NCBI GenBank assembly: GCA_037431425.1
Contig: GCA_037431425.1_4129.2
DNA: 64,000 nt
Reading direction: 5' to 3' (one strand)
DNA from: a phage
The notes beneath the pieces were generated by a model, which was not told the DNA's origin, did not search any database, and saw only the letters and a list, made by a program, of their open reading frames with translations. The translations under genes and the position numbers were made by a program. Below are positions 7,179 to 52,731 of this stretch, piece after piece; position 1 is the stretch's first letter; the number at the start of each line of letters is the position of its first letter.

Positions 7179-7187
7179 GGATTAGAA

Positions 7188-7796
7188 ATGAAATTAGAAG
7201 CAGAACAACCAAAACTATTTGTTAAAGGTCATGTCCTAATTACTGACGTTACTGATCCATCAAATCAAAAAATCGTTTTAGATAAATCTAACGCTATTCA
7301 CCCAGAAAATATGAGTACTGCAATTGCTAATGCGTTAGCATACAATCAAGATAGTACCAGTATTCCTATTGGTTCAATTAGCGAAATGCGTTTTGGTAAT
7401 GGTGGTACTGTAGTGTTAAGTACTGGACGAGTCACGTACAAAAAACCACGTGTGACTTCCTTTGGTGGATTGTATTCACAAACATATTTAAAAAAAATCA
7501 ACCCAAGAATTACTGCTGGTATTGATTCACAGTATAATAACATCACAACAGTTCATATCCCAGGACAATCATATACTGATATTGTATGTATTTGTACGCT
7601 TGGTTTGGGTGAACCATCAGACCAAGGTGTAAGTTCAGGCACAAGTATGGATGGCACATATGTATTTGATGAATTAGGGTTATATACTGATGGTGATAGT
7701 GGTATTCCATTGACACATATCATTTTTCACCCAGTTGAGAAAAGTGCTAACCGTGTGTTACAAATTAAATACACAGTTCGTGTACAACTACAATAA
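7188..7796 (+). CDS. hypothetical protein (probable virion protein)
   Basis: 202-aa ORF tightly packed after previous gene; no motif recognised. Confidence 0.5.
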   Translation: MKLEAEQPKLFVKGHVLITDVTDPSNQKIVLDKSNAIHPENMSTAIANALAYNQDSTSIPIGSISEMRFGNGGTVVLSTGRVTYKKPRVTSFGGLYSQTYLKKINPRITAGIDSQYNNITTVHIPGQSYTDIVCICTLGLGEPSDQGVSSGTSMDGTYVFDELGLYTDGDSGIPLTHIIFHPVEKSANRVLQIKYTVRVQLQ

Positions 7797-7808
7797 TGGG
7801 GTCAAATT

Positions 7809-8909
7809 ATGAGTGTAAGTTATACAATTTATAGAAGCAATGGTAGTGTTTATGCTACCATTCCAAATAATGTCATATTGGGGCCAAACCAACCAGGAAG
7901 TAACCCAGTTCCGTTGAATTTTGTCGGAAGAAATAAAGTAAGTTATGGACAAGCATGGAATGAAAACTTTTTACATTTAGTTGAGAATTTCAGTTCAGCT
8001 TCAGCACCACGCGGTAATGTGAACGGTCAACTGTGGTACAGAAATGCTGGCAGTACTGGTGAATTATTGATATCATTGGTTGACAATGCTAGACAACCAT
8101 CAGATGTTGTGAGTGAAGCTGAGTGGGCGTCTATTCCAATGATTTCTGTGTTTAATACCGTACCAGATGGTGAAAATAGTGTTATGGGTCGTATGGTATT
8201 AACCAGTAATGGTGACTCACTTCGTGTATTAATGAAAAATAAAGAATGGCGTGAAATTCAAACATCACGTCCTGAGAATAAAGAATATACATCATTATTG
8301 GATATTAACTATGATAATGGTAAAAAATATATTGAGTTTACACAAAATAATAGTACTAAACCACTAGCATATTTTAACTTAGGAGGAACGTCACAAGTCG
8401 ATACTAACAACTGGACAACCGTAACTAACGGAACTGGTGTTTTTGAATTTGGTAGTAACTATTTCTATGAATTAAAAATTATGATTAGAGAGGTAAGCGA
8501 TTCAACAGGTGAAATTGTATCAGTTCCACATAATTCAAAAACATTTTTAATCAAAGGTCAATTTTATGTAGATAACCAAGGTACGTTTGTCCCTGGTTCT
8601 GTGGGTGCAAGTCAAATGCCAGACCCCCGCAGGATTACACATCTAGAAACCATTAAAGATGTTATTACCAGTAGTCGCCCGAACTGGGATGTGAACATGG
8701 TTATCAATGATGTAGATCCATCACTACCTAATCCAAACGGCACATCTAAAGCAGATTATGAAAACTGGGTTATTAACTCATTGAACTCTAATAAAAACTT
8801 AGGATTTAGAGTTGATGGTAGTATTAGCAATCTTGCACCAGGTGAATCTGTGAAATTACAAGCATCAGTGTTGTTAAACATTACAGGTATTCCAATTATT
8901 GGTGTATAA
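7809..8909 (+). CDS. hypothetical structural protein
   Basis: 366-aa ORF; Asn/Ser/Thr-rich; followed by a strong terminator. Confidence 0.5.
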   Translation: MSVSYTIYRSNGSVYATIPNNVILGPNQPGSNPVPLNFVGRNKVSYGQAWNENFLHLVENFSSASAPRGNVNGQLWYRNAGSTGELLISLVDNARQPSDVVSEAEWASIPMISVFNTVPDGENSVMGRMVLTSNGDSLRVLMKNKEWREIQTSRPENKEYTSLLDINYDNGKKYIEFTQNNSTKPLAYFNLGGTSQVDTNNWTTVTNGTGVFEFGSNYFYELKIMIREVSDSTGEIVSVPHNSKTFLIKGQFYVDNQGTFVPGSVGASQMPDPRRITHLETIKDVITSSRPNWDVNMVINDVDPSLPNPNGTSKADYENWVINSLNSNKNLGFRVDGSISNLAPGESVKLQASVLLNITGIPIIGV

Positions 8910-8914
8910 AAAAA

Positions 8915-8937
8915 AGGAGCCATGTGGCTCCTTTTTT
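8915..8937. terminator. bidirectional intrinsic terminator
   Basis: AGGAGCC-atgt-GGCTCCT stem-loop with A-run before and T-run after; lies between convergent genes ending at 8909 (+) and 8936 (-). Confidence 0.7.
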
Positions 8938-9400
8938 AATATCTATATGGTAAACTATTGACAAACTGTGTACCTTCACGTATACTTTCCCATAATGAGT
9001 AAAAATCTTTCATCAAGTTTGTGTTAAGCAATGTGTTTTTTGCACCAGGGTGTAATGGTTTAGGCCACGAGCCGATTTTAACCCATGCATATCCAGAGCT
9101 TTCATGATTTAATGTTGGTATAAACTCATTCTCAACTACGATAACAAATGAATAATATTTAAATTTACCATTTTTTGTACAAAATACATCAAATGGTATA
9201 ATATCAATAATATTTGGTATTGAGTCACCTAACTCTTCTTTAATTTCTCTCATAAGACCTTGTAATGGTGTTTCGTCGCGTTCAAGCTTTCCACCAACAA
9301 ATGCCCAATTGTTCGAATAGGTACTTCTTTCAGAACGTAAATTTAACATCATATGTCCGGTACTTTTTGATAAAAATATAGCACCAACAGCTTCATTCAT
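8936..9400 (-). CDS. Nudix hydrolase
   Basis: Nudix box GGKLERDETPLQGLMREIKEELG matches GX5EX7REUXEEXGU. Confidence 0.8.
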   Translation of the reverse strand: MNEAVGAIFLSKSTGHMMLNLRSERSTYSNNWAFVGGKLERDETPLQGLMREIKEELGDSIPNIIDIIPFDVFCTKNGKFKYYSFVIVVENEFIPTLNHESSGYAWVKIGSWPKPLHPGAKNTLLNTNLMKDFYSLWESIREGTQFVNSLPYRY

Positions 9401-14677: not shown

Positions 14678-17600
14678 TTACTTAACTATTAATATTTTTT
14701 GAATATCATTACCACGAACTCGTAGACTGTTAGTATACACAGAAAGGTCTATTGTATAACTATTTTGAGTATAACGTTTAAACTTATCATAACCGCCCAA
14801 ATTAATTCCGTTGAAAGAATATGTAGTATCATGTTTGAAATCGTGTTCTGCACTGTACATTACTCCACGGAGTAAGTTGTTTGTATTTCTAACTTCAACT
14901 TTTTCATATCCAATCGATATAATGTCACTCTTGTTAGCAGCGGAGCCTGATAACACATTATTTCTAACATTATAATGGCTTACGGAAAGAGGTTGTGCTA
15001 CATAAGTTGTGTTTTCTTCACTAATGGTTGTTATGTTAGTGATGGTAGCGTCAGCCACATCAATATACATACTATCAACCATTGGATATTCATACACCCA
15101 CACACCTTCATTATTTTTTGTCGGTTTGATATCTTTCGCATCATATTCAATCACGTTAATTTCTAAACAATCCGGCATTTTAGTTCTTACTAATTCACTA
15201 AGAACACCTTCCCCTGTAATTGGTAGATTATAACCGTTGTCTATAGTAATACCATCATCATTAAATATTTCATTTGATACAACCCAAACATCAACATCAT
15301 CAGGTGTTACTCCGTCATTATACTTACCACCATTTAAAGTAGTATCATAAAAAACGTCATAATTAATCACATCAATGGTGTAATTTCTGTTTTGCTCATA
15401 TAATTTAATATCACCCTTGGTAAATTCTGGGTCAGCAAATGTTCTAACACGAACAATGTTCAATGCAAGATGTTGTACTGGCTGATTCAGTTGTCCAAGT
15501 GTGATGTTATCATATCGAAGAACATTACCAGAACTATCAACCAACTCAATTGTTTCTTTTCCTGTAGTTCTTACAGTGAATAGAATAGGAGTTGTATTAT
15601 GTTTGATATTAGACACACGTAATATGGTTTCCCATGTACGATTTTGATATCGAATAAAATCTTCACCATCCGGCGTGAAAATCATCACCTTATCACCATC
15701 AGATAAGTCACTGTCAACGATTTCAGCCTCAGTTAAGCTATTAATAGAACGTACACGATAGAAATATTTTTCTTCAAACGGTGATGCCGTTTTATTAATA
15801 TCATGTTCAATCTTAGCATATGAAGGAATACTAACAATTGCTTCTGTATGTTTATATGGGTTGATAATTGCCATACCCTCGGTTTTATATCTGCTATTAT
15901 TACGCAATTGCACTAGTGATTCAGTATCAAATCCATAACCATCAACAGTGAATCTAATATGCCCAACTGCACGACTAGCTGGATTTATTTCAGATATATC
16001 GATAATATAAGGATCAACTTCGTCATCTTTAACTTCCCATTTGATAGCTGAAGTTTGTGATTCTAATGCAAGGTTGTCAAATGCATTCATATCATTGAAG
16101 AACTTAGCTTCAGCAATACTATCAATTATATATTGATAATCCGAATACATAGGGTTATTTTGATCTTGTGGTAAATCATCTAGATTTATTTCAGCAAGTT
16201 TAATCATTTCACCATTAGTAATGAAATAATCTTCCATGAAATCATCAATACTTTTATCATCTGGTATACTTTGGTATTCACCATTGATATTTAAGTAGAC
16301 ATGTTTTCTTGGCATCATAGTAATAGCATAGATATCAATAGGTGTTTTTGAAAGAATTTCTTCTGCTTTTTCATACATATCAGTAGAGTCTTTATCAAAC
16401 AACCCTCTCATGGCTGCCAGTACATGGACCGCATCGGAATAGAAACGTGTATCACCACCAATTTCATCATAACGATAAACATATACACCGTATTCAACTT
16501 CAAGTTTCACTTTAATATCATGTTCAGATGCATCTGGATATTTTTCTGTAATAAAAGAAATATATTTTTCATATAATTCTTTACTTATTTCAAAATATCC
16601 ATAGTTATAATCATTACTTGAAGAAAAACCTAATGGTAGTCTAGTACTTGGGTTATCATTATAAACCAAACCACTAAATCCACAGCCAACCTCATCATGA
16701 ATCTTATCATCACTGATATCTTTATAAAGTTTCAAACGGTTTGCTAATGTATTGTACTGAACATAGTGTCGAAGGTCAGTAAACATTTCATTATGCGTTG
16801 ATTCGTTATAAATGCGTTCAAGTGTAGCAGTAAATTCATCAGTTGCTTCTAAATCATCAGCATGTTCTTTATACCACTGGTTTACACCATTTGCAGTTCC
16901 TAGTGTTACATCTAATTCTGGATAGTACGTTTGTAATAGATACGCATTAACCAAGTCAAATGATTGTTCATTATACACAGGGTAAGAATATATATAACGT
17001 TGTAATTCATAGGTATTAACAGAATCTTTTTCATTTGATTGATACTTATTATTAACACTAATCAACTCATTAATGTTTGCCAAATCTTTATTCGGTTTAC
17101 ATTGAATATTATCATAATGCATAATAATATCAATTTCTTGAAATCTTCTATTTGGTGCAATAAAATCACTAGGCAGAGAACCTACTTTCTCCCATTTTTT
17201 AGTGGTTTCATTATATTGAGCGTACTCATAATCCCAAATATCCTTTTCAGTTTTAACCCACGAACCATCAACAAAAATATACCCATTAGGATCTAAATCA
17301 TTACAAAGACCTTTGATTAAGTCATCATCAGACGTTTTTTGTTCTATCTGTGAACGGATTTTTGTACGATATGGTTTCACCTCTTCAAAGTACTCAACAA
17401 TTTGGTTAATCAAATTATCATTTGAATAGTTTTGTACCAAAGATTGTTCCAAACCAACAATATAGATATAGGATGTTTTAAATACCCAATCAACAACACC
17501 CTGTTCTACGTGTACATATTTGACCATATCAAAAACAATTTCACTTTGGTGTAAATCGAAAGAATTTTTTAGCAAAGCAAGTGCTTTTCTAATATTAATT

Positions 17601-20600
17601 TCACGATTACTAAGTGAACCGTCCTCATTATGAACATTATAATCTACATAAAACAAATCGTTAAGCTCAATAGTACTACGTTGTCGCCCAATAGCTTTCC
17701 AATAAATTGAATCACGTGATTGAGATTTGATATATAAAGTCCAAATGTTTTCACTATCTGTGACTCTAATTATATCACCAACTTGATAGTTTTTAGCATT
17801 TGCTTCTTCTAAACTTATCTCTTGGATGTAAGCAGTTTTGCTATCATACCCAACATCATACCAATCTGCATAAGACCAGTATTGAGTCATATCTAATGAT
17901 GTTCCGAGTGATTCAACATAATCCGATTGCTTAATCATTTTATGTTGTCCTTCACCTTTATTTTCTAAAGTTATAGTAACAACACTACCTGCATTAGCTG
18001 GACTATTCATTAACTGAATATATCCGTTTTCATCGAAGTGAATAAAATAAACAGCACTAGTTGATAATGGAGTCGGTAGATAACCGCTAGAACTTAAAAT
18101 AACAGCGTCATTTTCTTTAAATTTATCCTTTTCAACTGCAATTACAAGTTCATTATTATAAGTTAATACACGGAACGAAACCTCATTAGGGTTAACTTCT
18201 GTAGTTTTAACATTAAACACATCTTCCATAACAACACTATTAGTAGTTATGTTTTGTGATCTATAATAATTATTTGCACTTTCTACAAAGTTTCTACGTG
18301 CCTCTATTATATTCTGGAACCAAGTTTTATTAGAGCCTAAACCAGTGCCAACTTCTGGATATAATAAATCTACAACCTTACCTGACTTCGTAGTTTCTTG
18401 ACCAATTAGAGAGTTCCACATAGAGTCCCAAATTAGTGGGTTAAAATTGTAACTTTCACCCTCTTTACAAAGTTGATATTGATCATGTTTAACAACTTCT
18501 GTATTGTCCATATAGTAAGAAATAGTCAAAACACTAGTATCATCATTAACTTCAAACTGCATATTACTAAGAATAAAAGAGTTTTCATTAATTGGTGCGA
18601 ACCAAGGAATGTTCAACTGTGATGGATCTTTAATAATACGTGCAATGTCAGTACATGATTTTGTTCTGGTATGAATAGGTGGTACATAAATTGTATCACG
18701 TACCCAGAAATAGTATTTTGTTACATAACTGTCAGTGGAGCTATCATATTCCAAAAATGTACTATAATTATCTTCAAGTGCTGTTCCACTTGGAAGATAC
18801 ATATTATTATTTTTGTTTTTCTTAGCAACATCTTTACAGTACTTATCCCAGTTATATGGTTCTACTGGTGAACAAACCCATTCCAACACATCAATAGTAC
18901 TATGTGGCAACAAACGACCCCAGTTGTAACGTTTATATTCATTGGTTGCGTCAATATCAACATTTCCATCTGCATCATAAATGGCACGAGTATAATCCAA
19001 ATAAAAAGCGGTGCTAGTGTTCCACCATACTTGACCAACTTTTTCAGCACCCCACGCCTGAACCAATTCGCCATTACTATTATATTGAGCAGGGTCGATT
19101 GGTGAAGTATATGTTACGTTTTGCATTGCTGCACCAGGAATAACACCATTAATTGGGTCATAAACATTTAGATATAATGCAGTAATGTTTGTACGTTCAT
19201 CATATGTAGTTGGACGTTCAAACAAAGTACTTTGTGGTGCTTTAAAACTATATTTTTTATCAATATATGCTTGACGCTCTTCAGTACTCACAAAACGCGA
19301 AACATAACGATACAAACGAGGGCGTGTATCTGGGTCAGTAAATTCGATATTAATTGAAGTATCAAATGGAACCACCATAACTTTGGAATCATCCCCAGCA
19401 GTATAATATTGACTTTCTACTGTTAAAGTATCTGGCATAAAGTTAGTTTCGTCCACAAAATAATAGTAATCACCATCTTCAAGAGGGATATCATCAGATA
19501 GAGTTACTTTACAGAATTTCTCAGCGTAAACATCTGTGGTTTCGATTGGTGTAATAGAAACCATTTTAACATTAGTGTCAATTAATTCAAAAATGTTCCA
19601 TAACCCATTTCCATCTTTGAACATCCATACTGATTCAGGATTTTCACCTTTACCATTGATATACAACATACGGTCATTGAATGCAGTACTGAAATCTTTC
19701 GTAGTATAAGATACTTCATCTAATGTAACTGGACCAATATCAGGCAGTTGGATGTGTTCACTTCTACCACTACGCATTGGGAAAGAGAATTTACCATTTG
19801 GACGAGTAATCCATTGTGGGTCTTTTCCTTGTTCACCAAAGAATACAATATTGTTTCCATTGCCATTTGATGTTGCATTTTCATCAAAAGACATCATTTG
19901 TGGCTGCTGCTTAAATTGGTCATTAATCAATTTAAATTGAAGGTTTTTCTTTCCATCGATGTTACCATATGTACCAACTTTAAACGCCCATTCTTGTAAT
20001 GCTTTATATTCATCAGTATCATAGGATTTAGAAACACGAAGAACACGTTCTAAAACTTGGTTTGTACCTTTGTCATGAATAAATCCTTTATAGAAATCAA
20101 CACGACTTACATCACTACTAATCATACGTTGTAGATAATCACGAGATTGATAACCAATCAAATGGCTAGACAATTCTTGTAATTGTACATCGCTAACGGG
20201 ATGTTCATTGTCATAGTAATGTTGAAAATCTGTTACTAGAGTTTCAAATGATGGTATTGTACCAGATTCCAAAATAATAAAACCAGGTGCTTGTAATCTA
20301 CCAGTCCATGAACCAGTAATGTACCCATACATTTTAATTAGTTCCTGGATAGAACCATAAGTTGGTTGATAGATATAATCACCAAAAATAGTCTTATCAT
20401 CAAATATAACAGCATGTTCATATGAACACAAACTTAAACGGATTAATGCAATACGCTTATTAGAATCGGTTGTTCTAACAGTGAATATATTACCAATACG
20501 TGAAGTTTCGATTTCATATTGACGAATACCTTGGTTATTATCATCAAGCAATGACCACACACCACCATTATTTTGTGTAATAGACTGTACTGAACCAAAA

Positions 20601-23600
20601 TCCGAACCAAACTTAGCATTTGCAGCACTTGGTGTACAAGAGATAAATTCGCCAGTTACCAGAGGACTCTGACTCCATATCACAAAATCTTTAGCAATAG
20701 TGTGCCAATCTTGCTGAATACCATCTTGATTAACATCTTCGAAAATCCAGCCATGTTCTTTAAGATACTCACCATATCCACAAATAAAAGTGTATACTTC
20801 TTGATAACTATTGAAAATAGTCCCATATTCAATAGAAGCCTCAGACTTCCATTCATTATAATGAACAATATTACGGTTTTCCAATTTAAGAGTTACTTTT
20901 CTTCCATTTTTTACTGGAAGTTTATATTTAAATTTCGCACCAACCAAATCATATCCATCAATTTGATATGCACTACCATTCCATGTAATTTTGATGGCAC
21001 TCATCTGTTCATCGCGAATGTTATTCGAACGCACCAGACCAATCGTTTGGTTTTCTTGTGAAATAAGACCAAATGATTTAGCGTTGAATGTTAATTGATC
21101 TGCTTTAGTAAAGCCACCAATTTTATGTCCCACATTTACGTAAGACGAACGTACAACATCTCCATATTTTGTAGTAATATTTTTATTTTGATACATCAAA
21201 TAATCACTAACAAACATTTGATATCCAATTGTTCTTGTGTTATCTTCACCATGAACAGTTGTGTTTTTATCAAAATTCACACGATTGCGGGTATCCCCGT
21301 ACAGAAATTGTTCACCAGTGGTGATAATTTCTTTCAAATTGTCATTACGGGTATCCCAATAATAGTTGGCAAATTGTGCAGGTTTAGCTTTATACAAAAG
21401 TAACATTTGGTCATATGCAAACAATGTGGTGTTCATATACGTAAATTCCATATCACCCATGTCGCCATACGCCCAAGGTTCTGCTCGGTGAACTAAAGAT
21501 CCAGACACTAATCCTAAAACTTCAGGAGCAATATACTCAACCACACAAATATCTACACCGGATGATGTTTTATTTCCAGTTTTAGTAATTTTAAATGGTT
21601 GTACACCAAATCTTTTATATTTGTCATACTGACCACGGCGGTCGCCATATAAAATTGTCCCAGTACTACTATCGCCGATTGTATCATTTACATCCCAAAG
21701 TCCACTAGGAACCAAATCACCTTGTTCATCAGTTACAAGTGCCTCATATACATAAACTACATCACCATCACGTTCACCAACTTGGACAGCGGTTGGTTCA
21801 TACTCTTGGTTCCACCAAGTAGGACGTTGTGTAAACCCAAACATTTCCCATGGATGTGTAGCAGGGCGATATGTACCATATTGATCAGTATAGATTGCAC
21901 GCCATGAACCACGAGCAGGAATTTCAGTACTTTTACCATCAACAACATAATAGGTTCCAGTATAGTTCCATGTTCTCCAGTTATTAGGATCATAATCATG
22001 TGTGCTATTACTAATACCATTAGATGCAGTGAAGTTAATATAACCACGTAATAGAAGTGTTTGTTTTTCTTCTGCACTATATTCAGTTTTTGTAAAATAT
22101 GGCGTAGGGAAAAGATCATCACTATTCAATACAGGGACATAATCAACATCTTTGAATTTATTGTCAATACTATTGAAAATTCTATTTTCAAGTTCATATA
22201 CAACATCATCCATTTTATCAACACCATTGATAACACGGTATGCTTTAGAAATAATACCAGTATGGCTGATATTATAATAGCTAGGTTTACTACCAGCAGT
22301 TAGGAATGTTGCTTTCTCAGGAACGTATGCTTGTAGAATACCTAAAAACTGTGGAGTTGGTGGTATAAATGCACGAATAAGACCAGATGTACTACCCACA
22401 TTGTCATAATAGAATGGGAATGAACTATCACGACCCATATTAATAGTTGCCAAAATAGAATCAACGATGTTAGCTGCACTATTTTGTAAAAAGTTAGTTG
22501 GGTTTTCATTGTACATTCTAAGCATTTGTGTATTAAATTTATTAATGAATCTGAAATATTCAGATTGCATAAACATAGTTGCTTCAAATAAATCAATATC
22601 TTCATTTGCAGTATGAGCCATCAATGGGAGCATAGAAGCTTCATTTTGAATAATTTTAGTTCCTACTCCATTATTCACTAATCCCTTAGCTAAACGTTCT
22701 TCATAATCGTTGAAGTCATCAGCATAACCACTAGTGATATTCTGTTGAATAATATCCTGAAAATGAAGAGTATAGTCTCCTTGATTAATATATATAATAT
22801 TGGAGTTATATGGGTTATTTTGTAAGTTAATTGGAACTTCATATGCACCTAATTCTTTATCAGGTGTTACAGTACTGCTATAAGTTCTAATTTGAATAAC
22901 AGAATCATCATCCAATTCAACACTGTTATCGATTGTGATACTTTGCACTTGACCTTTTAATACATTCTTGGTATATTTGGAGATATTAACACCATCAACA
23001 ACAACTTCAATAATATCAGAGTCATTGTCTAAAACTTTTTGTGCCAATTCAAAAGTATGGTCATATTTTAAAACCTGAATACCATCACCACTAATTTGAT
23101 GCCAGTCCAAATATGTTTCACGTTCAGCTTTATAGTACTGATATGTTTTATCAACTTCGATGACATATGCATACATACCCTCGACTGGTTCTTTAAACAG
23201 TTCCATATCATAAACAGAACTAAAGACTCGATACATATCAGTACGTTTGACTTGAGGTGTCTGTTTTACAAATTGTTTAGAGAATTCTTTTGAACGCACC
23301 CAATCAGTTTGAAGATTCATTTTATTATTTTCATCAATGATGTTATAATAATACAAACCACCGATTTCAACTTCAACACCAAGATGGTCATATGTATAAC
23401 GTTGTGATTGTAAAAAGTTTTCATAAGTGTAATAGTTATAATCACCAAGTTCAATGTTATACCCATATACACTATCAGCCGCGTAGTTATAGTTTATTTT
23501 AAATCCAAATAATGGTGAACCTTTAAATGTACTGGATGGGTACGTGGTGCTGTTATCTAGTTTGATTCCATTACGATCATAAAGTTGGAATTGAGGAAAG

Positions 23601-24661
23601 ACGTTAACACTTGGCTTCGCCTGTGCACGAACCCATAATGTTCCATTCCAATACATAGAATTATTGCCGTACTCATTTCCTTTTGTGACCAAAACTACGT
23701 CACCATTTTGTGGTTCACCACTTGGACGGGACTCAGTTTCTTCATTTGGATCTAGTGCTAAGCCATAAACGCGTGTACCATCTTGCATTTTTTTAACATA
23801 CACTTTATAAATTCTATTGTTTTCACCATCATTACCAATACTGGTGAATAGAATACGCATACCATCTTGTGGAATAATACCATCAATGCGAATACCGCTA
23901 TTGACATCTTTTTGAATAATATCTTCAGGTTTGATACTATCAGAAAAAAGTTCAACTGTTCCACGGAATTTTGTACCGTAGTTAATTAGCTCGATATTTT
24001 TATTATATTCGATAATTGGTGCACGAGCACGAATAAAACGAGAATCTTGCATTAGCTCTTCAGTCAAGATAGAACCGTCTTCTAGTGTTTCACCTAAAGT
24101 ATACCAAAAGTTTTGCAAAGACCATGTATTACCATTAAGTGCTCCACGTTCCATTACAATGTAATCAGGTGTAATGATATTATAAGAGTTTTTGGTATCC
24201 CAAAGATACGAACTAAAATTGTTCATTTTATTTGGGTTAATTGCAGGAGTCCATGCATAAAACTTACCGTTAAATAAACGACTTTCATTATCGGTTAGTG
24301 CTCCGTAATGACTCATGTATCCAACAAGATCATCATAAAATTGAATTGAACGAATTGTTGAATCATCATTTTTAGAGACATAAGCAGTGGACAACTGATA
24401 TAGTTGACGTGCAACAGAACTTTCATGCAAGAAGATATTACCAGCGGCAGCCGGAGAACCCATGTCACCAATATAACCGTCAACCAATTCGTTTTCAGCC
24501 GGATTAAACCATTGTTGAATAACATCATCACTGACTTTTTGAATATCTTCTAAGCCTTGCATCCACTCAGGCAATCTTTTGATAAAAAGCTTTTTCTGTA
24601 CTGCTTCAGCCATCTGTGTAGGTTGAAACTTAAAATTATTAGTCATTTTTCTGGACTCCAT
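14678..24661 (-). CDS. giant virion protein (3327 aa), in the position of T4 baseplate gene 7
   Basis: Single uninterrupted 9984-nt ORF; immediately downstream of the gp6-like gene; preceded by ATAAATAA late-type motif; Asn/Tyr/Asp-rich, no catalytic motif recognised by eye. Confidence 0.75.
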   Translation of the reverse strand: MESRKMTNNFKFQPTQMAEAVQKKLFIKRLPEWMQGLEDIQKVSDDVIQQWFNPAENELVDGYIGDMGSPAAAGNIFLHESSVARQLYQLSTAYVSKNDDSTIRSIQFYDDLVGYMSHYGALTDNESRLFNGKFYAWTPAINPNKMNNFSSYLWDTKNSYNIITPDYIVMERGALNGNTWSLQNFWYTLGETLEDGSILTEELMQDSRFIRARAPIIEYNKNIELINYGTKFRGTVELFSDSIKPEDIIQKDVNSGIRIDGIIPQDGMRILFTSIGNDGENNRIYKVYVKKMQDGTRVYGLALDPNEETESRPSGEPQNGDVVLVTKGNEYGNNSMYWNGTLWVRAQAKPSVNVFPQFQLYDRNGIKLDNSTTYPSSTFKGSPLFGFKINYNYAADSVYGYNIELGDYNYYTYENFLQSQRYTYDHLGVEVEIGGLYYYNIIDENNKMNLQTDWVRSKEFSKQFVKQTPQVKRTDMYRVFSSVYDMELFKEPVEGMYAYVIEVDKTYQYYKAERETYLDWHQISGDGIQVLKYDHTFELAQKVLDNDSDIIEVVVDGVNISKYTKNVLKGQVQSITIDNSVELDDDSVIQIRTYSSTVTPDKELGAYEVPINLQNNPYNSNIIYINQGDYTLHFQDIIQQNITSGYADDFNDYEERLAKGLVNNGVGTKIIQNEASMLPLMAHTANEDIDLFEATMFMQSEYFRFINKFNTQMLRMYNENPTNFLQNSAANIVDSILATINMGRDSSFPFYYDNVGSTSGLIRAFIPPTPQFLGILQAYVPEKATFLTAGSKPSYYNISHTGIISKAYRVINGVDKMDDVVYELENRIFNSIDNKFKDVDYVPVLNSDDLFPTPYFTKTEYSAEEKQTLLLRGYINFTASNGISNSTHDYDPNNWRTWNYTGTYYVVDGKSTEIPARGSWRAIYTDQYGTYRPATHPWEMFGFTQRPTWWNQEYEPTAVQVGERDGDVVYVYEALVTDEQGDLVPSGLWDVNDTIGDSSTGTILYGDRRGQYDKYKRFGVQPFKITKTGNKTSSGVDICVVEYIAPEVLGLVSGSLVHRAEPWAYGDMGDMEFTYMNTTLFAYDQMLLLYKAKPAQFANYYWDTRNDNLKEIITTGEQFLYGDTRNRVNFDKNTTVHGEDNTRTIGYQMFVSDYLMYQNKNITTKYGDVVRSSYVNVGHKIGGFTKADQLTFNAKSFGLISQENQTIGLVRSNNIRDEQMSAIKITWNGSAYQIDGYDLVGAKFKYKLPVKNGRKVTLKLENRNIVHYNEWKSEASIEYGTIFNSYQEVYTFICGYGEYLKEHGWIFEDVNQDGIQQDWHTIAKDFVIWSQSPLVTGEFISCTPSAANAKFGSDFGSVQSITQNNGGVWSLLDDNNQGIRQYEIETSRIGNIFTVRTTDSNKRIALIRLSLCSYEHAVIFDDKTIFGDYIYQPTYGSIQELIKMYGYITGSWTGRLQAPGFIILESGTIPSFETLVTDFQHYYDNEHPVSDVQLQELSSHLIGYQSRDYLQRMISSDVSRVDFYKGFIHDKGTNQVLERVLRVSKSYDTDEYKALQEWAFKVGTYGNIDGKKNLQFKLINDQFKQQPQMMSFDENATSNGNGNNIVFFGEQGKDPQWITRPNGKFSFPMRSGRSEHIQLPDIGPVTLDEVSYTTKDFSTAFNDRMLYINGKGENPESVWMFKDGNGLWNIFELIDTNVKMVSITPIETTDVYAEKFCKVTLSDDIPLEDGDYYYFVDETNFMPDTLTVESQYYTAGDDSKVMVVPFDTSINIEFTDPDTRPRLYRYVSRFVSTEERQAYIDKKYSFKAPQSTLFERPTTYDERTNITALYLNVYDPINGVIPGAAMQNVTYTSPIDPAQYNSNGELVQAWGAEKVGQVWWNTSTAFYLDYTRAIYDADGNVDIDATNEYKRYNWGRLLPHSTIDVLEWVCSPVEPYNWDKYCKDVAKKNKNNNMYLPSGTALEDNYSTFLEYDSSTDSYVTKYYFWVRDTIYVPPIHTRTKSCTDIARIIKDPSQLNIPWFAPINENSFILSNMQFEVNDDTSVLTISYYMDNTEVVKHDQYQLCKEGESYNFNPLIWDSMWNSLIGQETTKSGKVVDLLYPEVGTGLGSNKTWFQNIIEARRNFVESANNYYRSQNITTNSVVMEDVFNVKTTEVNPNEVSFRVLTYNNELVIAVEKDKFKENDAVILSSSGYLPTPLSTSAVYFIHFDENGYIQLMNSPANAGSVVTITLENKGEGQHKMIKQSDYVESLGTSLDMTQYWSYADWYDVGYDSKTAYIQEISLEEANAKNYQVGDIIRVTDSENIWTLYIKSQSRDSIYWKAIGRQRSTIELNDLFYVDYNVHNEDGSLSNREINIRKALALLKNSFDLHQSEIVFDMVKYVHVEQGVVDWVFKTSYIYIVGLEQSLVQNYSNDNLINQIVEYFEEVKPYRTKIRSQIEQKTSDDDLIKGLCNDLDPNGYIFVDGSWVKTEKDIWDYEYAQYNETTKKWEKVGSLPSDFIAPNRRFQEIDIIMHYDNIQCKPNKDLANINELISVNNKYQSNEKDSVNTYELQRYIYSYPVYNEQSFDLVNAYLLQTYYPELDVTLGTANGVNQWYKEHADDLEATDEFTATLERIYNESTHNEMFTDLRHYVQYNTLANRLKLYKDISDDKIHDEVGCGFSGLVYNDNPSTRLPLGFSSSNDYNYGYFEISKELYEKYISFITEKYPDASEHDIKVKLEVEYGVYVYRYDEIGGDTRFYSDAVHVLAAMRGLFDKDSTDMYEKAEEILSKTPIDIYAITMMPRKHVYLNINGEYQSIPDDKSIDDFMEDYFITNGEMIKLAEINLDDLPQDQNNPMYSDYQYIIDSIAEAKFFNDMNAFDNLALESQTSAIKWEVKDDEVDPYIIDISEINPASRAVGHIRFTVDGYGFDTESLVQLRNNSRYKTEGMAIINPYKHTEAIVSIPSYAKIEHDINKTASPFEEKYFYRVRSINSLTEAEIVDSDLSDGDKVMIFTPDGEDFIRYQNRTWETILRVSNIKHNTTPILFTVRTTGKETIELVDSSGNVLRYDNITLGQLNQPVQHLALNIVRVRTFADPEFTKGDIKLYEQNRNYTIDVINYDVFYDTTLNGGKYNDGVTPDDVDVWVVSNEIFNDDGITIDNGYNLPITGEGVLSELVRTKMPDCLEINVIEYDAKDIKPTKNNEGVWVYEYPMVDSMYIDVADATITNITTISEENTTYVAQPLSVSHYNVRNNVLSGSAANKSDIISIGYEKVEVRNTNNLLRGVMYSAEHDFKHDTTYSFNGINLGGYDKFKRYTQNSYTIDLSVYTNSLRVRGNDIQKILIVK

Positions 24662-28254: not shown

Positions 28255-28286
28255 AAAAAGAAAAGCACCCCGAAGAGTGCTTTTTT
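28255..28286. terminator. bidirectional stem-loop terminator
   Basis: AAAGCAC-cccgaaga-GTGCTTT stem with flanking A-run and T-run. Confidence 0.55.
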
Positions 28287-28700: not shown

Positions 28701-29189
28701 TTATACGGATTCGACGATTCGTGCCATCTTTTCCGCTCTAGAAGTGGTTTGTTTATACCAGGTACTATCACGCAATTCTTTACCAGCAGTTTTATAATCA
28801 GCATTACCCAATGCGGTCATTGCTTTTTTAAATTTCAAAACTTTGGCTTTGCCCATTTGGAACACCATCATCCACAAAACACGCTGTACTTGTACTGGTG
28901 CAGTCATGCCAAATTGCTCATAAATTGATTTTGCGTCATTGTACGCGGCCTGAGCATCTTTAATAAGAAGTTGTTCAGCTTGTTCTTCAGTTAAGCCATT
29001 TTTGAAGTTTTCACCAGGAAGAACTAAATGACCATAACCAATAGTATCAAGTCCCAAGCTATCTTTATATACCCAAAACTTATCATTTTTAAAATAACCA
29101 AGTTTTTTCTGATAAGCAATAGTTCCTTCAAATTCTTTGATTTCATTAAAAAATTGCTCATCTGTATTTTTAATTTCCCATTTACTCAT
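28701..29189 (-). CDS. e: T4-type lysozyme (GH24 endolysin)
   Basis: TIGYGHL, MVFQMGKAKVLKFKKA and WYKQTTSRAEKMARIV track T4 lysozyme TIGIGHL / MVFQMGETGVAGFTNS / WYNQTPNRAKRVI; 162 aa. Confidence 0.9.
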   Translation of the reverse strand: MSKWEIKNTDEQFFNEIKEFEGTIAYQKKLGYFKNDKFWVYKDSLGLDTIGYGHLVLPGENFKNGLTEEQAEQLLIKDAQAAYNDAKSIYEQFGMTAPVQVQRVLWMMVFQMGKAKVLKFKKAMTALGNADYKTAGKELRDSTWYKQTTSRAEKMARIVESV

Positions 29190-29225
29190 AAAGACATCCT
29201 TATATTATTTATAGTACTAAAATAT

Positions 29226-31889
29226 TTATTGACATGCCTCTAAACGACGAGCCATTAATTCAGCACGGCGTGTTGTTTGACGATACCAAGCCGAATTTCG
29301 TATTTGAGCAGCAGCTTGTTTATAGTTTCCTTTGGCTAATTCAGACAACATGGTCTTAAATTTAAGGACACCCCCTTTACCCATCTGGAATACCATTTGA
29401 CATAGAACTTGTTGTGCCATGTAAGGAGTTTTCATGTTATATGATGCATAAATTGCCTTAGCATCATAAATTGCTTTACTACTGTCTCTAACAAGCATAT
29501 CATTGGCTTCTTGTTCAGTTATACCTGACGAAAAGTTCTCACCGCTAACAATTAAGTGACCGTATCCAATAGTAGGGAATCCACGACTATCTAAGTAACG
29601 CCAGAATTTACCATTACGGTAATATCCTTTTGCTTGTTGATATTGTATTGTACCCTCATATTCTTTTAATTCCGAAATAAACTGAGCATCACCTGGGACG
29701 ATTTTCCAATCTATTGCTGTTTTATCTACGTTACCAACATTATATGTAGGTTGTTCAACTGGCGTTGATGATACACTTCTACGTTGTGTTCTTCTTTTGC
29801 GTGGTACATGTCGTGAACCACGCTGAGAATAACCAGTCCCAATTGTTTTAATTTTAGTAGTTACTACTAATTCATCACTATCTACTGACGGTTGCACAAC
29901 TGCTTGCGGTGACGATTGATTAGTTGCTTTTCCAGCAATCAAGGTTTTATTAGCTGCATCTGCTCCAATTCCAGTTTGTGATGCATAGAACAATCCCGGA
30001 TCAACTGAACCACTAAACCCAAGTACATTTGCAGACGTTACACGTATTTCAAATTGAATAACACCTTTAGCTTTACCTATAACTTGTCCTTTTTGAACAA
30101 CATCTTTATTCAATAAATCAGTTTGAATATTATAAAATATAGATTTATATCCAGATTTGTGTTGTATTAAAATACCACCATTGGTGATTGAAACAACACC
30201 ACCATCTGGTGCAACAACATCACCTTTGCATTGTATTTCCCATCCAGAACGATCTGCTTTTCCACCGTTTTGTGTTGGAATACCTTTCCCCCAGTAACCA
30301 TATTGACGAATTGTCCCACTACATGGCATATACATATGTAAACCTTCATATGTGATACTATATCCAGTCATCCCAGCATCAGATACCATCAAATCTTGTG
30401 TTTGTACTTGTTCTGTTTCAGGGGTATAGTTAATAAACTGTATAGCTTCAGTTTCTTGAGCTTCTGGAATTTCTGGTGTAACATCATTAGCAGGTTGTGG
30501 CTGTACTGGTGATTCACTTGAAATCTTCCCACCGCCTTGTCTCGGTGGTTCAACAGTACTACCATGTTTTTCTGCATTAACCCAAGCAGAAATGTCATGA
30601 ATGTGTTCATTTAGACCCGTAGATGGTGTTTTAAAGTTAGGAGCAGTAAATTCAGCAGTTCCGCTGTTTCCTCCACTGTTAACAGTCAATGTTTGACCAC
30701 CACCACTAATTATTGCTGATGATGAACCAATTAAATTTGCGGAAGTAGAAGCAGATATAGATGCATTTGAACCTGCGGTAATATCAGTACTACTACCACT
30801 TTGCATACGCAATGATGCAGCAGTAACTAATCGGAGATCTGCACCAGAATTAACAACAACCTGACCACCAACTTTTGCATCAAGTGCACCAATTAAATCC
30901 AACTTAGTATTTGCACCAACACGTGCATTGAAATCTTGACCAGATTCAATATTATATGAACGACCAGCAATCATATTAATATCCTGACCAGCACGAATAT
31001 TGATATTCTTATCACAATGCATATCAATATCACCTTCACCTGTAAATTTTATGCGTGCTGTTCCGTCACGGTTAATTAACAGAACGTCGCCTGTTGCTTC
31101 TGACAGTAATAGCTGTGCACCACTGCGAGTTTTTATAACAACTCCTTCATTTTTACGGGAACCAACACGTGTATCGTTTACTGGGTTATTAAATTGTGTA
31201 TCCTGATAACCATCTGGATCTTGATCCCATGTAGGTGCGGTTAATTCCTCTTCAGTATATCCATCATCGATAATAAAACTATTTCCACGTGGTGACGACA
31301 TGCCATATACAGTACTGGTTGTCTGGCGGGTGCTACTGCGATTAGCAAGACCTGCTTCTTCATCATATAAAAGGTTTTGTTTTTTCAAACCAGCAATGAT
31401 TGGAACGTTTGCATACTTATCTTGCATGTCCGTTGTGATTGTGTTACGATCATAATCAGTAACAGGGATAGGCATATCCGTTCCGCTATAACTACTAACT
31501 TCAGTTGCCATGCCTGGAACCATAGTATTCATGCGATGGTCATATACACAGCCAATCCAATATGCCTGAAATGTACGTGCCTGTGCGAAAATCACAATAA
31601 CAGTGCACCCAACATCAGGCGGTACAGCCCAGAATCCATAGCCTTTGGGATATTGACCATATGCATCGGCACTTGGAATACCTGGTGTTTTGCCAGCAAA
31701 TGGTGACATATATGATGCTTCAATCCATGATTCTTTGGAATTTTTATCACTTTGTGAACCTTGTATCCAAACTTTCAATTTTCCTGATTTAGTTGGATCT
31801 CTATTATCCATAACCGTTGCTAACTGTGGGTAAGATGGGTCAAAACGACCCAACTGTTGTTGTGCATACTTTTTACTTGTATCTGCCAT
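29226..31889 (-). CDS. 5: baseplate central spike, gp5-like: N-terminal OB-fold, beta-helical needle, degenerate M23-like domain, C-terminal GH24 lysozyme domain
   Basis: N-terminal VMDNRDPTKSGKLKVWIQG resembles the gp5 OB-fold motif; Ser/Gly/Thr repeat region; GDVVAPDGGVVSI...GGILIQHKSGYKSIFYN...GQVIGKAKG M23-like pattern lacking catalytic His; C-terminal 150 aa closely similar to the adjacent free lysozyme. Confidence 0.8.
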   Translation of the reverse strand: MADTSKKYAQQQLGRFDPSYPQLATVMDNRDPTKSGKLKVWIQGSQSDKNSKESWIEASYMSPFAGKTPGIPSADAYGQYPKGYGFWAVPPDVGCTVIVIFAQARTFQAYWIGCVYDHRMNTMVPGMATEVSSYSGTDMPIPVTDYDRNTITTDMQDKYANVPIIAGLKKQNLLYDEEAGLANRSSTRQTTSTVYGMSSPRGNSFIIDDGYTEEELTAPTWDQDPDGYQDTQFNNPVNDTRVGSRKNEGVVIKTRSGAQLLLSEATGDVLLINRDGTARIKFTGEGDIDMHCDKNINIRAGQDINMIAGRSYNIESGQDFNARVGANTKLDLIGALDAKVGGQVVVNSGADLRLVTAASLRMQSGSSTDITAGSNASISASTSANLIGSSSAIISGGGQTLTVNSGGNSGTAEFTAPNFKTPSTGLNEHIHDISAWVNAEKHGSTVEPPRQGGGKISSESPVQPQPANDVTPEIPEAQETEAIQFINYTPETEQVQTQDLMVSDAGMTGYSITYEGLHMYMPCSGTIRQYGYWGKGIPTQNGGKADRSGWEIQCKGDVVAPDGGVVSITNGGILIQHKSGYKSIFYNIQTDLLNKDVVQKGQVIGKAKGVIQFEIRVTSANVLGFSGSVDPGLFYASQTGIGADAANKTLIAGKATNQSSPQAVVQPSVDSDELVVTTKIKTIGTGYSQRGSRHVPRKRRTQRRSVSSTPVEQPTYNVGNVDKTAIDWKIVPGDAQFISELKEYEGTIQYQQAKGYYRNGKFWRYLDSRGFPTIGYGHLIVSGENFSSGITEQEANDMLVRDSSKAIYDAKAIYASYNMKTPYMAQQVLCQMVFQMGKGGVLKFKTMLSELAKGNYKQAAAQIRNSAWYRQTTRRAELMARRLEACQ

Positions 31890-31899
31890 ATTTTATTCC

Positions 31900-34149
31900 T
31901 TAATCAACTATACTATCTTGACGTTTAAGTGCACGGATTACAATTGCAGCTTGAATTTGTTGTGTGAAAGAACCACCTGCTCCAAAGTCATGCACAATTT
32001 TATTAACACGATAAATGGTTTGATTAAACGTGGTTGGTGTATTAATATCCAATACACCCGTGTTATCATTAATTGATACTACAGGTTGTAATTTAAGTAA
32101 AAGGTATGCTTCAGATGTTATATAGTTTGCTACATGATAATCATCTGGATTAATTTCCATATCTTCCCCATTAATTACTTGCTCTAGATATTGTAAGTAC
32201 GAATAATCACTCCATCCAAGCCAATATGGGTCACCAACAACTCGCATATCAAGTTTACACAAAAAAGGTCTATTGTAATAGTTGTCACGTATTTTACGTC
32301 TATCCATTTCATATGTACTACTGTTATCATTTAATGAAGCAGACAGTGTGGTTTCGTTGTTAGTTGCTTCAGTTGGCATAGTGAATATTTGACCATATCG
32401 ATGACCAACGCCGTCAGTACCTTCATCAGTTTCTTCATATGTGGAGACATAATCTTCAATATATTGTGGTAATACATTTACTTGATAATTATTATAACGA
32501 TCCTGCTCTTCTGCATTTCCAACCTGCATTTGGTTTTTAGCTAATGTGTCAATATCATTTAATAAATCTTGCTGATCTTTGGTTAGCATACCACCCATAT
32601 CACGTGTAACACGCAAATCGCTTGTTTTCGCCCATGCATCTGGTATACTATTATATTGTACACCTTGTATATTCAATTCTTGTGAGTTATGTGTACCTGA
32701 ATGGTTTGCTACGTCTTGTATTGGACCAGGGTTGCGAGTAGTAGCTACAAAAAATTGCTGGTCAAATTTCAAATCCAAATCAAGTATCTCACTATTAAGT
32801 CCACTAAACTGATAATTATAAGTTTTCATGTTTATTTTAGGTTTTTGATCAATAGGATCTACGTATTTTTCTGCGTTCTCAAAAAAGTACTCAAATGTGA
32901 AATTTTCTGGTTTCAAGTCAGATTCATGTACAATGTCACCTATTTTAAATTTAACTATGTAAAAAATTACTTTATAAACAGATGTATTACGATAATTATC
33001 AAAACCTATATATTGTTTTATTGGTATAATATTAACAAATTGTCTTACACTAGTACTCTCATCCGCTTGTACAGTACAAGTGTCGATAACATCATCAATA
33101 ATTCTTGATATTGGTGTGCTTGGGTTCCATGAAAAGTTTTTAGAACCTTGTGTTCCACTTTTAGTCGTTCCTGCTTCTGCCATTTGTTTTGAATCATAGT
33201 TGATAAAAAGATCTTGTAAATCAGGAGCTACTTTAAATTCAAAAAATTTACCATCGGATAATTCACCAAATTTATATCTTAGATAGCCATATTGTTGATC
33301 TGCCATTTGATTTAATTTATCTTCTAAATCAAAACAGAAATCACCAAAGTTTTCAGCCGTACAGTTAAATGGTTCTTTTAATGTCCATTCCATGTTGTCA
33401 ACTAATGCTGCTCTATTATGAACTAAACTCATAGTATATAGCATAGTACTACCACTTTGTGATGCACTTGCTGTAATACTATTAATTTTTACAGACCATC
33501 TTCTCGTGGTTTCTGGTATAATCTCAGGTATTCCATTCTTATTAAAACCAACAAACTTTAACTCTAAGATTAAAGGTAAGTCCATGAATTTATGAAATCT
33601 AAGTTTGTTACTTAAAGATACTAATTCGTCATATAGACTCATACTGTTATTCTCAGACATATTAAGAACTGCGGTATTAAAACAATAATTCGTTGTCATT
33701 CCTGGTGTGGATGGTCCTGCTTGTGTCATTTGAACACTTGTTATATTATATTTTCCACTAACGCCACTTTCTGATATAACATAGCGTTGTACCTCTGCAT
33801 CAGGGTAAAGCCAAAAGTTTTTGAAATCATCTTTATCTAAAGCAAACAGACAAAAATGCCAAGTTGGGTTGTCATATTTTAATAACTTATTCTCATATGG
33901 TATTACAAACTGACTTAAATCCAAATCTTCATAAACTTGGTCCATTCCGGCACTTTGTGATGGTAATGATTCAACATTACTAACGTTTGCTTTATAATTA
34001 TTTTTCGTGATAGTTTTTACATCATTTTGTAATGTATTGGTGGTGGCTTTCAAATTATCAAGTGAATTATTTGCAGTTGTTTTTGTCTTACCAGTGATAT
34101 TTGATATATCATTTTGAAAATTATCAACTGTACTTCGTAAATCTGCCAT
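31900..34149 (-). CDS. hypothetical baseplate hub-associated protein (immediately upstream of gp5-like spike)
   Basis: 749-aa ORF 10 bp from gp5-like start; no motif recognised; function inferred from position only. Confidence 0.5.
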   Translation of the reverse strand: MADLRSTVDNFQNDISNITGKTKTTANNSLDNLKATTNTLQNDVKTITKNNYKANVSNVESLPSQSAGMDQVYEDLDLSQFVIPYENKLLKYDNPTWHFCLFALDKDDFKNFWLYPDAEVQRYVISESGVSGKYNITSVQMTQAGPSTPGMTTNYCFNTAVLNMSENNSMSLYDELVSLSNKLRFHKFMDLPLILELKFVGFNKNGIPEIIPETTRRWSVKINSITASASQSGSTMLYTMSLVHNRAALVDNMEWTLKEPFNCTAENFGDFCFDLEDKLNQMADQQYGYLRYKFGELSDGKFFEFKVAPDLQDLFINYDSKQMAEAGTTKSGTQGSKNFSWNPSTPISRIIDDVIDTCTVQADESTSVRQFVNIIPIKQYIGFDNYRNTSVYKVIFYIVKFKIGDIVHESDLKPENFTFEYFFENAEKYVDPIDQKPKINMKTYNYQFSGLNSEILDLDLKFDQQFFVATTRNPGPIQDVANHSGTHNSQELNIQGVQYNSIPDAWAKTSDLRVTRDMGGMLTKDQQDLLNDIDTLAKNQMQVGNAEEQDRYNNYQVNVLPQYIEDYVSTYEETDEGTDGVGHRYGQIFTMPTEATNNETTLSASLNDNSSTYEMDRRKIRDNYYNRPFLCKLDMRVVGDPYWLGWSDYSYLQYLEQVINGEDMEINPDDYHVANYITSEAYLLLKLQPVVSINDNTGVLDINTPTTFNQTIYRVNKIVHDFGAGGSFTQQIQAAIVIRALKRQDSIVD

Positions 34150-52383: not shown

Positions 52384-52422
52384 TAGATAAATATCTCCAT
52401 ATTAATGATGGAGATTGAATCT

Positions 52423-52731
52423 ATGTCACAAATATGTTATGTTATCATAAATTCTGCGTGGCCTGATTATGTTAAGATTGGGTTCACATCAAAATCCGAA
52501 ATGACTGAGCGTTTGAGAACATATCAGACAGCTACACCTTTCAGAGATTTTGAGGTATACCATGAGGTGTATTTTGATGATGCACGTTTGGCTGAAAAAG
52601 AAATTCATAAAAGACTAAAGCAAATGAATGCAATTAGACAACCGAACACTGAGTGGTTTAAAATGTCTAAAAAGATCGCCGCAAACATTATTGACTCCAT
52701 AAGGGATGATATGGATAATGATATGTTATAG
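52423..52731 (+). CDS. T5orf172 / GIY-YIG-like domain protein
   Basis: CYVIINSAWPDYVKIGFTSKSEMTERLRTYQT...EWF matches the T5orf172 pattern (YVY...KIG.T...R...); start set at ATG 52423 with GGAG SD 9 nt upstream. Confidence 0.55.
   Translation: MSQICYVIINSAWPDYVKIGFTSKSEMTERLRTYQTATPFRDFEVYHEVYFDDARLAEKEIHKRLKQMNAIRQPNTEWFKMSKKIAANIIDSIRDDMDNDML

Follow-up and report, generated by a model that had tools for sequence, protein, structure and literature searches.

A jumbo-phage central spike that combines a C-terminal lysozyme with a predicted catalytically dead LytM domain

Within a 64,000-nucleotide (nt) stretch of phage DNA (contig GCA_037431425.1_4129.2 of GenBank assembly GCA_037431425.1; hereafter the window), an 887-amino-acid (aa) open reading frame (ORF; 29226..31889, minus strand) encodes a gp5-like central spike, and the ORF of a free lysozyme of 162 aa (28701..29189, minus strand) follows it after a gap of 36 nt. 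We propose that the spike is an iron-tipped trimeric needle that carries three tethered cargos, each consisting of an apparently dead LytM domain and a lysozyme, into the periplasm, an account that we hold to be probable though some way from secure. By megablast, the window corresponded to Escherichia phage ph0011 (OP557969.1, Asteriusvirus, 348 kb) with 99.5% identity over 4.5 kb, and 34 more records, among them those of the jumbo phages 121Q, PBECO4 and phAPEC6, matched at 80–90% identity. The spike and the free lysozyme belong to a known giant E. coli phage of the RaK2/121Q group. The ph0011 record labels both genes simply 'lysozyme', and PHROG 13211, of the same name, matches end to end.

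An earlier reading of the letters alone (the sequence-only reading) had implied that this layout was new, which is not borne out. In 2013, the domain composition of RaK2 gp078 was called 'very unusual': its beta-helix has an unmatched region on either side, and a lysozyme ends the chain. The same report set it against T4 gp5 and noted three lysozyme paralogs in RaK2 (PMC3622015). In 2017, CBB_240 was reported to contain an N-terminal gp5 OB domain, a C-terminal lysozyme in a non-T4 order and a possible central M23 domain, with an adjacent T4-type lysozyme, CBB_239, beside it (PMC5259590). RaK2 gp078, CBB_240, phAPEC6 gp241 and 121Q gp587/586 are members of the same family as the ph0011 spike, with full-length identities of 58–71% and the same gene neighbourhood. 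The domain order, the central M23 match and the neighbouring free lysozyme have been known for orthologs since these two reports, and the novelty is low because every element of the earlier observation is in print for them. What is added here is modest, namely a LytM domain that is dead family-wide and restricted to these spikes, a mid-chain HxH motif, an ancient duplication and swapped cargo in distant relatives. In the literature searched, we found no report of family-wide M23 catalytic loss, of an invariant mid-chain HxH, of an ancient two-clade paralogy or of cargo swapping, and no structure of a RaK2-group baseplate.

Spike architecture and the HxH motif

From the N- to the C-terminus, the spike runs through an OB-fold, a conserved neck, a beta-helix, an HxH motif, a linker, an M23/LytM-fold domain, a second linker and a GH24 lysozyme (Table 1). 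Many residues of the OB-fold region are invariant across the spike family, represented by an alignment of 87 sequences to which all family counts and statements of invariance refer. In addition to the OB-fold, Pfam detected a DUF2345 beta-helix repeat at aa 280–326 (31.3 bits against a cutoff of 30.7), and a core profile built from spike aa 1–450 and short distant relatives matched VgrG structures (9jg8 at 6e-9; 4uhv/4mtk at ~2e-5), in agreement with the sequence-only reading of the protein as a gp5-like central spike. The N-terminal OB-fold likely seats the spike on the hub or tube end. Because the Pfam Phage_lysozyme match (aa 765–882, E 1.9e-11) lies C-terminal to the DUF2345 match, the lysozyme comes after the beta-helix. 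The same reading had placed it C-terminal to the needle, reversed relative to T4 gp5, and this order holds, with the lysozyme at aa 728–887 and the helix at aa 271–420 in ph0011 versus a lysozyme at 190–326 that precedes a helix at 444–543 in the T4-type gp5 chain 9f4a_BB. The neck occupies the position at which T4 gp5 has its lysozyme, whereas in ph0011 it gave no Pfam match and contains no enzyme domain. The two systems otherwise resemble each other in having an OB-fold and beta-helix spike with a GH24 domain, a free GH24 paralog in the genome and syntenic gp53, gp25 and gp6-like neighbours; they differ in that the gp5 lysozyme lies between the OB-fold and the helix, whereas that of ph0011 is C-terminal, after the helix, the HxH motif and the dead LytM domain. 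Orthologs of the spike have been detected in virions by mass spectrometry (MS), CBB_240 with 3 peptides (PMC5259590) and phAPEC6 gp241 with 7 peptides.

Residues H429 and H431 are invariant in 87/87 spikes, and H442 is kept in 79 of them. An HxH motif is the defining feature of the iron-binding Apex domain in spikes of the P2 gpV type (bioRxiv 10.1101/2023.02.25.529910; PMC12407873), and P2 gpV and phi92 gp138 have in common with the ph0011 spike an OB-fold, a beta-helix and a conserved HxH after the helix. By contrast, the Apex of P2 gpV comprises residues 191–211 of 211 (bioRxiv 10.1101/2023.02.25.529910), whereas linkers and enzyme domains follow H431 in the ph0011 spike, where 456 residues come after it and the motif is thus mid-chain rather than near the C-terminus. 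T4 gp5, which gp5.4 caps, lacks an HxH in the vicinity of its C-terminus (bioRxiv 10.1101/2023.02.25.529910; PMC12407873). By analogy with P2 gpV, the ph0011 needle most likely ends in an iron-binding apex at about residue 449, to which the trimer would contribute three copies of H429-x-H431, and the rest of the chain would be tethered cargo.

Distant relatives share only spike aa ~20–370, at 26–33% identity, and their C-termini differ. Some end at ~550 aa without an enzyme, P0093 carries an intact M23 domain (62.8 bits; HWGID, HLH) together with a trypsin-like peptidase, P0088 has a GH24 domain, P0119 has two GH24 domains, and P0103 and P0109 have GH19 domains. These differences show that the wall-degrading cargo is modular on a conserved spike core, as in evolved VgrG proteins. 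As a separate observation, among the distant relatives P0090–P0120, the C-terminal ~40 aa of the cargo-free proteins of ~500–600 aa contain the conserved motif R-x-x-x-x-E-P-x-P-E-H-E-N, with THEPYVNHP in P0093, and many of these cargo-free relatives have no HxH at all.

The degenerate LytM domain, the linkers and the two lysozymes

The sequence-only reading had also described an M23-like segment in which the catalytic histidines appeared replaced, with RSGWE and QFE in the motif positions. The Pfam match of this segment to Peptidase_M23 (aa 551–608) scores 18.1 bits, below the 28.7 cutoff, with E 3e-3. At the level of sequence profiles alone, the M23-like family matched LasA (2.5e-6), SpoIIQ (6.8e-6), DipM and EnvC in the PDB. 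In an AlphaFold2 (AF2) model of the segment aa 470–700, built on an alignment of 27 sequences, aa 514–659 reached a predicted local distance difference test score (pLDDT) of 90–97, and all 47 of the 47 Foldseek matches in the PDB at E ≤ 1e-3 were LytM/M23 domains, led by EnvC (8tzl_E, 3.2e-6), DipM (7qrl), a peptidoglycan peptidase (6jn7) and PrgK, with LytM, lysostaphin and SpoIIQ also among them. Because the PDB profile matches, the confident model and the Foldseek matches agree, the weak M23 match is real homology, and the segment has a genuine LytM fold.

Both replacements had been read correctly. R547-S-G-W-E551 stands in place of HxGxD, V610-I-Q612-F-E614 stands in place of HLHFE, and N587 takes the place of the catalytic His of the YxH motif, a position at which the family has D, G or N. 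Of the 87 sequences, 71 have R and 5 have H at position 547, while 50 have I and 9 have E at position 551. When intact M23 catalytic residues were looked for on the family alignment, the full catalytic and zinc-ligand set was present in 0/87 sequences, with H547 alone in 5. The scaffold residues P522, G525, W550, G580, R616, G624, G627, D630-P631-G632 and F634 are invariant. Exhaustive searching of 1.84 billion representatives with HMMER returned 7 matches below 1e-30, all of them proteins of 870–985 aa with the domain at the same position, and the next matches, from ~1e-14, were generic M23 proteins, most of which keep HxGxD and HLHFE. Since the catalytic set is lost, the scaffold is conserved and the close HMMER matches are confined to the spike lineage, the LytM domain is lineage-specific, under purifying selection and, as predicted from its residues, catalytically dead.

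EnvC, NlpD, DipM and SpoIIQ likewise combine a conserved LytM fold with the absence of metal and catalytic residues and are the closest structural neighbours of the ph0011 domain, differing in that they are bacterial regulators or scaffolds whereas the ph0011 LytM domain is embedded in a phage spike. Active M23 metallopeptidases have the fold in common with it, but not the HxxxD and HxH ligands and the catalytic histidines. By analogy, the dead LytM domain may most simply be a non-catalytic binder of peptidoglycan or the peptide stem that holds the lysozyme on its substrate. In BFVD, M23 folds are frequent among the tape-measure, hub and internal proteins of phages. Lysozyme and M23 are paired in phi29 gp13. 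The hub of Staphylococcus phage 812 carries a CHAP 'cleaver' domain (PMC13433997). These and other virion hydrolases resemble the ph0011 spike in placing cell-wall enzymes on tail-tip proteins; reports or predictions describe their M23 or CHAP domains as active, whereas in ph0011 the M23 domain is apparently dead and only the lysozyme is intact.

The linkers that flank the LytM domain vary in length across the family, linker 1 from 53 to 108 aa and linker 2 from 77 to 100 aa, and in the full-length model pLDDT falls below 50 at aa 501–511, 660–664 and 702–715. Linker 2 contains the conserved segment ELVV..SIGSGYSQRGS(R/K)xxP(R/K)(R/K) at aa 673–698 (window ~29796–29873, minus strand), which reaches moderate confidence only in the full-length model; within this linker and its surroundings L650, V675 and G691 are invariant and I683, S692 and P696 are near-invariant. 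Residues 461–490 score 82–85 in the full-length model versus <50 in the isolated segment, and aa 461–490 and 671–700 together score ~74–85 in the former versus below ~50 in the isolated 470–700 model. These model differences and the conserved linker-2 segment hint that the cargo could be docked rather than freely tethered, and the segment at aa 673–698 could serve for docking or inhibition or as a cleavage site. The sole basis of the fold-back and docking ideas is the difference in pLDDT between the full-length and segment models.

The C-terminal GH24 domain is predicted from its catalytic residues to be an intact muramidase, with E745 and D767 kept in 86/87 spikes. Scores against PF00959 were 44.8 bits for the spike domain and 37.4 bits for the free lysozyme (cutoff 22.3). 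Pairwise alignment upheld the claimed paralogy between the free lysozyme and the C-terminal domain of the spike, in that spike aa 728–886 and free-lysozyme aa 4–162 aligned without gaps at 52% identity (E 3e-58); the corresponding DNA is 56.8% identical overall and 41.5% identical at third codon positions. Both proteins have a 13-residue insertion between the catalytic Glu and Asp relative to T4 lysozyme (T4L), whose E11 and D20 are the equivalents of these residues; the T4L sequence served as an outgroup only. In a tree of the lysozymes of five phages (ph0011, RaK2, CBB, 7t3 and XaC1), the spike-fused domains formed one clade and the free lysozymes the other. The spike and the free lysozyme remain adjacent in the Xanthomonas phage XaC1, in CBB and in 7t3, and in RaK2 four small ORFs (ORF074–077, 6842–8335 of its locus; two on the opposite strand) lie between them. 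Because two separate clades are found in five phages and the adjacency is conserved, the duplication is local but ancient and predates the divergence of this jumbo-phage group. A local duplication had been suggested before, and the local part stands, with adjacency kept out to XaC1, whereas a recent origin does not; both the separation into two clades and the 41.5% identity at third positions rule out recent duplication or gene conversion. In T4, gene e is located elsewhere in the genome, whereas the free paralog of ph0011 adjoins the spike.

The free 162-aa lysozyme is most likely a soluble late lysin. This is the simplest role because its UE-S1 ortholog LysUE1, reported to be 95% similar to ph0011 WAE77176.1, has been purified and lyses E. 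coli with ethylenediaminetetraacetic acid (EDTA) (PMC12805682). CBB_239 is not listed with the confirmed structural proteins in the CBB paper, whose authors favour another gene, a signal-arrest-release (SAR)-type lysozyme, as the main endolysin (PMC5259590). In the part of the phAPEC6 virion table that was covered, there is no entry between gp241 (the spike) and gp244 (the wedge), where by synteny the free lysozyme would presumably fall. Separately, the spike has a penultimate cysteine, Cys886 (…EAC-Q; window 29232–29234, minus strand), that is found in 73/87 spikes and, among the five free paralogs, only in that of XaC1; it may form a periplasmic disulfide or an inter-domain link.

Proposed action of the spike and alternative readings

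We infer iron binding, the apex role of the HxH motif, stowage, periplasmic delivery and the role of the LytM domain, and together these would give the following sequence of events. The protein would form the trimeric central spike of a contractile tail, in which the OB-fold, neck and beta-helix act as a rigid needle. A flexible linker of ~60 aa would lead to the dead LytM domain, and a second, partly conserved linker of ~70 aa would lead to the intact GH24 muramidase; since these linkers come after a trimeric needle, each needle would carry three tethered cargos. Within the baseplate, the cargo would lie alongside the needle shaft and not ahead of the tip, for which the tethers should be long enough. 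Upon sheath contraction, the needle would pierce the outer membrane and pull the cargo into the periplasm, where the lysozyme would cut glycan strands locally and so allow passage of the tube, and the dead LytM domain would bind peptidoglycan or a partner protein.

By analogy, the spike most likely corresponds in phages to an 'evolved VgrG' and would perform the function of T4 gp5 with a different domain order. In the evolved VgrG VgrG3cp, a C-terminal pesticin/lysozyme-like muramidase is delivered to the target periplasm (PMC9927483). V. cholerae VgrG3 and VgrG3cp are like the ph0011 spike in having a beta-helical spike, a linker and a C-terminal peptidoglycan-degrading domain. They differ from it in that the ph0011 spike is a phage protein in a baseplate cluster, with neither a type VI secretion system context nor an immunity gene, and in that it starts at the OB-fold and has no gp27-like module, the profile covering VgrG residues ~365–616 only.

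Several points weigh against an iron-tipped needle with tethered cargo. In known apex spikes the HxH lies ~12 residues from the C-terminus, versus the long extension after H431 here, and HxH cages are also found along the fibres of receptor-binding proteins, away from the tip (PMC12407873). The apex role and the stowage of the cargo are putative, and the peptidoglycan-binding role of the LytM domain is drawn by analogy. For a PAAR-type cap, no PAAR Pfam match was found in 10 small ORFs of the 64-kb window, the rest of the 348-kb genome not having been searched. RaK2 gp078 itself was undetected by MS (PMC3622015), and MS of the orthologs does not say which part of the spike protein was seen, so that the cargo could be cleaved off. 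The position of the motif and the mid-fibre cages, along with a linker 1 that is partly conserved and well scored in the full-length model (pLDDT 82–85), would suit an arrangement in which the HxH is a register-keeping metal site within the fibre, the trimer continues beyond it, and the three LytM and lysozyme domains make up the true distal end, an enzymatic knob whose blunt face would be the first part to meet the cell. We consider this arrangement unlikely, as the segment after residue 450 is P/Q/E-rich, 53–108 aa long and includes a stretch with pLDDT <50, LytM and GH24 domains are normally monomeric globular folds, and a blunt tip is hard to square with the reported importance of tip cross-section for P2 infectivity (bioRxiv 10.1101/2023.02.25.529910). 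It is also at odds with relatives of ~550 aa that have an HxH near position 460 and no enzymatic cargo.

T4 gp5 is itself cleaved, and a conserved basic motif, GS(R/K)xxP(R/K)(R/K), is present in linker 2 of the ph0011 family, both of which would fit a C-terminal half that is proteolytically removed or released during assembly, in the manner of T4 gp5 maturation or of C-terminal intramolecular chaperones, leaving a mature needle that ends at the apex and enzymes that are retained non-covalently or are not part of the virion. The failure to detect RaK2 gp078 (PMC3622015) and the low MS coverage of orthologs, 4–10%, point the same way. The phAPEC6 report lists the full 95.9 kDa, though this is a predicted mass, and the intact catalytic residues and the strong conservation of the cargo in 87 sequences suggest that it has a role during infection; we regard such removal as quite unlikely. 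Little probability attaches, in our estimation, to a further reading in which the dead LytM domain is a regulator of the EnvC/NlpD/DipM kind that is injected and, by binding in its groove, activates host amidases (AmiA/B/C) or other autolysins, or that gates the spike lysozyme through the linker-2 segment 673–698; if the domain were such an EnvC/NlpD mimic, the phage would open the sacculus at the puncture site partly with host autolysins. It is very improbable that the domain has kept endopeptidase activity by means of non-canonical residues. H577, E614, R616 and D630 are nearly invariant, and the distant relative P0093 has an intact M23 domain at the same place, but the conserved residues are usual M23 scaffold positions, a full set of zinc ligands and catalytic His is missing throughout the family, the best matches outside it mostly keep both canonical motifs, and the P0093 M23 domain, considered as a possible ancestor of the dead LytM domain, showed no pairwise similarity to it.

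As a discovery, the spike is minor, the gene being annotated in the deposited genome and the layout having been remarked on for RaK2 and CBB. Its value lies in offering a clean natural phage spike built like an evolved VgrG, with a conserved core and swapped cargo (GH24, GH19, M23 and trypsin-like domains), in one lineage of which the LytM domain would have lost catalysis yet stayed under strong selection. The questions it raises, what a dead LytM domain does at cell entry and whether an HxH iron apex can go together with a long C-terminal extension, both bear on the engineering of cargo-carrying phage tails, tailocins and contractile injection systems.

Gene neighbourhood

The genes around the spike are ordered structural protein, gp53-like protein, 749-aa virion protein, spike, free lysozyme, gp25-like protein, gp6-like wedge (1153 aa) and a 3327-aa protein. 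The gene order of the T4 baseplate cluster parallels this neighbourhood. The terminator-like hairpin listed in Table 1 suggests that the spike, free lysozyme and gp25-like genes end one transcription unit before the gene of the 1153-aa wedge.

Table 1. Features of the spike and its neighbouring genes, with positions in the window
Feature	Position	Strand	Details
OB-fold (gp5/VgrG Phage_base_V), spike aa 20–118	31536..31832	−	PF04717, aa 23–116, 29.5 bits against a cutoff of 23.8
Neck, spike aa 119–270	31080..31535	−	Most conserved part, 0.6–0.8 per-position identity; common to distant ~550-aa relatives
Triple-stranded beta-helix needle, spike aa 271–420	30630..31079	−	
Putative iron-binding apex, spike aa 421–449	30543..30629	−	H429-x-H431, F/W436, A439, N441-H442-S443 and P448-P449 conserved
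Linker 1, spike aa 450–513	30351..30542	−	P/Q/E-rich; islands GGG 452–454, PANDV 466–470, strand 478–486
Degenerate LytM/M23-fold domain, predicted catalytically dead, spike aa 514–659	29913..30350	−	
Linker 2, spike aa 660–727	29709..29912	−	Conserved segment aa 673–698 and basic tract
C-terminal GH24 (T4-type) lysozyme, spike aa 728–887	29229..29708	−	Catalytic E745, D767, T773
T4-late-promoter-like TATAAATA	29206..29213	−	Perfect motif in the gap between spike stop and free-lysozyme start, 17 nt upstream of ATG, then AAGGA ribosome-binding site
Free GH24 lysozyme, 162 aa	28701..29189	−	PF00959; catalytic E21/D43/T49 in alignment
gp25-like baseplate wedge, 131 aa	28292..28687	−	Pfam GPW_gp25, 36.1 bits; PHROG 43; last gene of sub-cluster
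Terminator-like hairpin	28261–28284	−	Strong; 10-bp stem then T-run, just 3′ of gp25-like gene
749-aa virion structural protein	31900..34149	−	PHROG 11190; directly upstream of spike

Orthologs of the 749-aa protein are plentiful in virion MS, with 12 peptides for CBB_241 (PMC5259590) and 5 peptides for phAPEC6 gp240. The protein gave no Pfam match and no PDB sequence match. It sits where a gp27-like hub might be expected and may be a candidate hub partner of the spike, although an identity as a gp27-like hub finds no support from Pfam or PDB sequences.

The promoter-like TATAAATA occurs in 6 copies in the 64-kb window versus 10.3 expected by chance, and 3 of the 6 lie just upstream of ORFs. 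At the orthologous site it is present in RaK2, has a near match in 7t3 and is absent from XaC1 and CBB. With no enrichment in the window and no conservation in XaC1 or CBB, TATAAATA was set aside as a dedicated late promoter of the free lysozyme and is a weak lead. A scan for sigma-70 promoters was uninformative (64 sites versus 61.8 expected).

Further along the window, the 3327-aa ORF (14678–24661, minus strand) lies downstream of the wedge gene, and its phAPEC6 ortholog is a 382-kDa virion protein. A small T5orf172/MUG113 (GIY-YIG-like) ORF at 52405–52731 (plus strand) is probably a mobile gene of the homing-endonuclease type, and a gene for a NUDIX hydrolase is located at 8936–9400 (minus strand).

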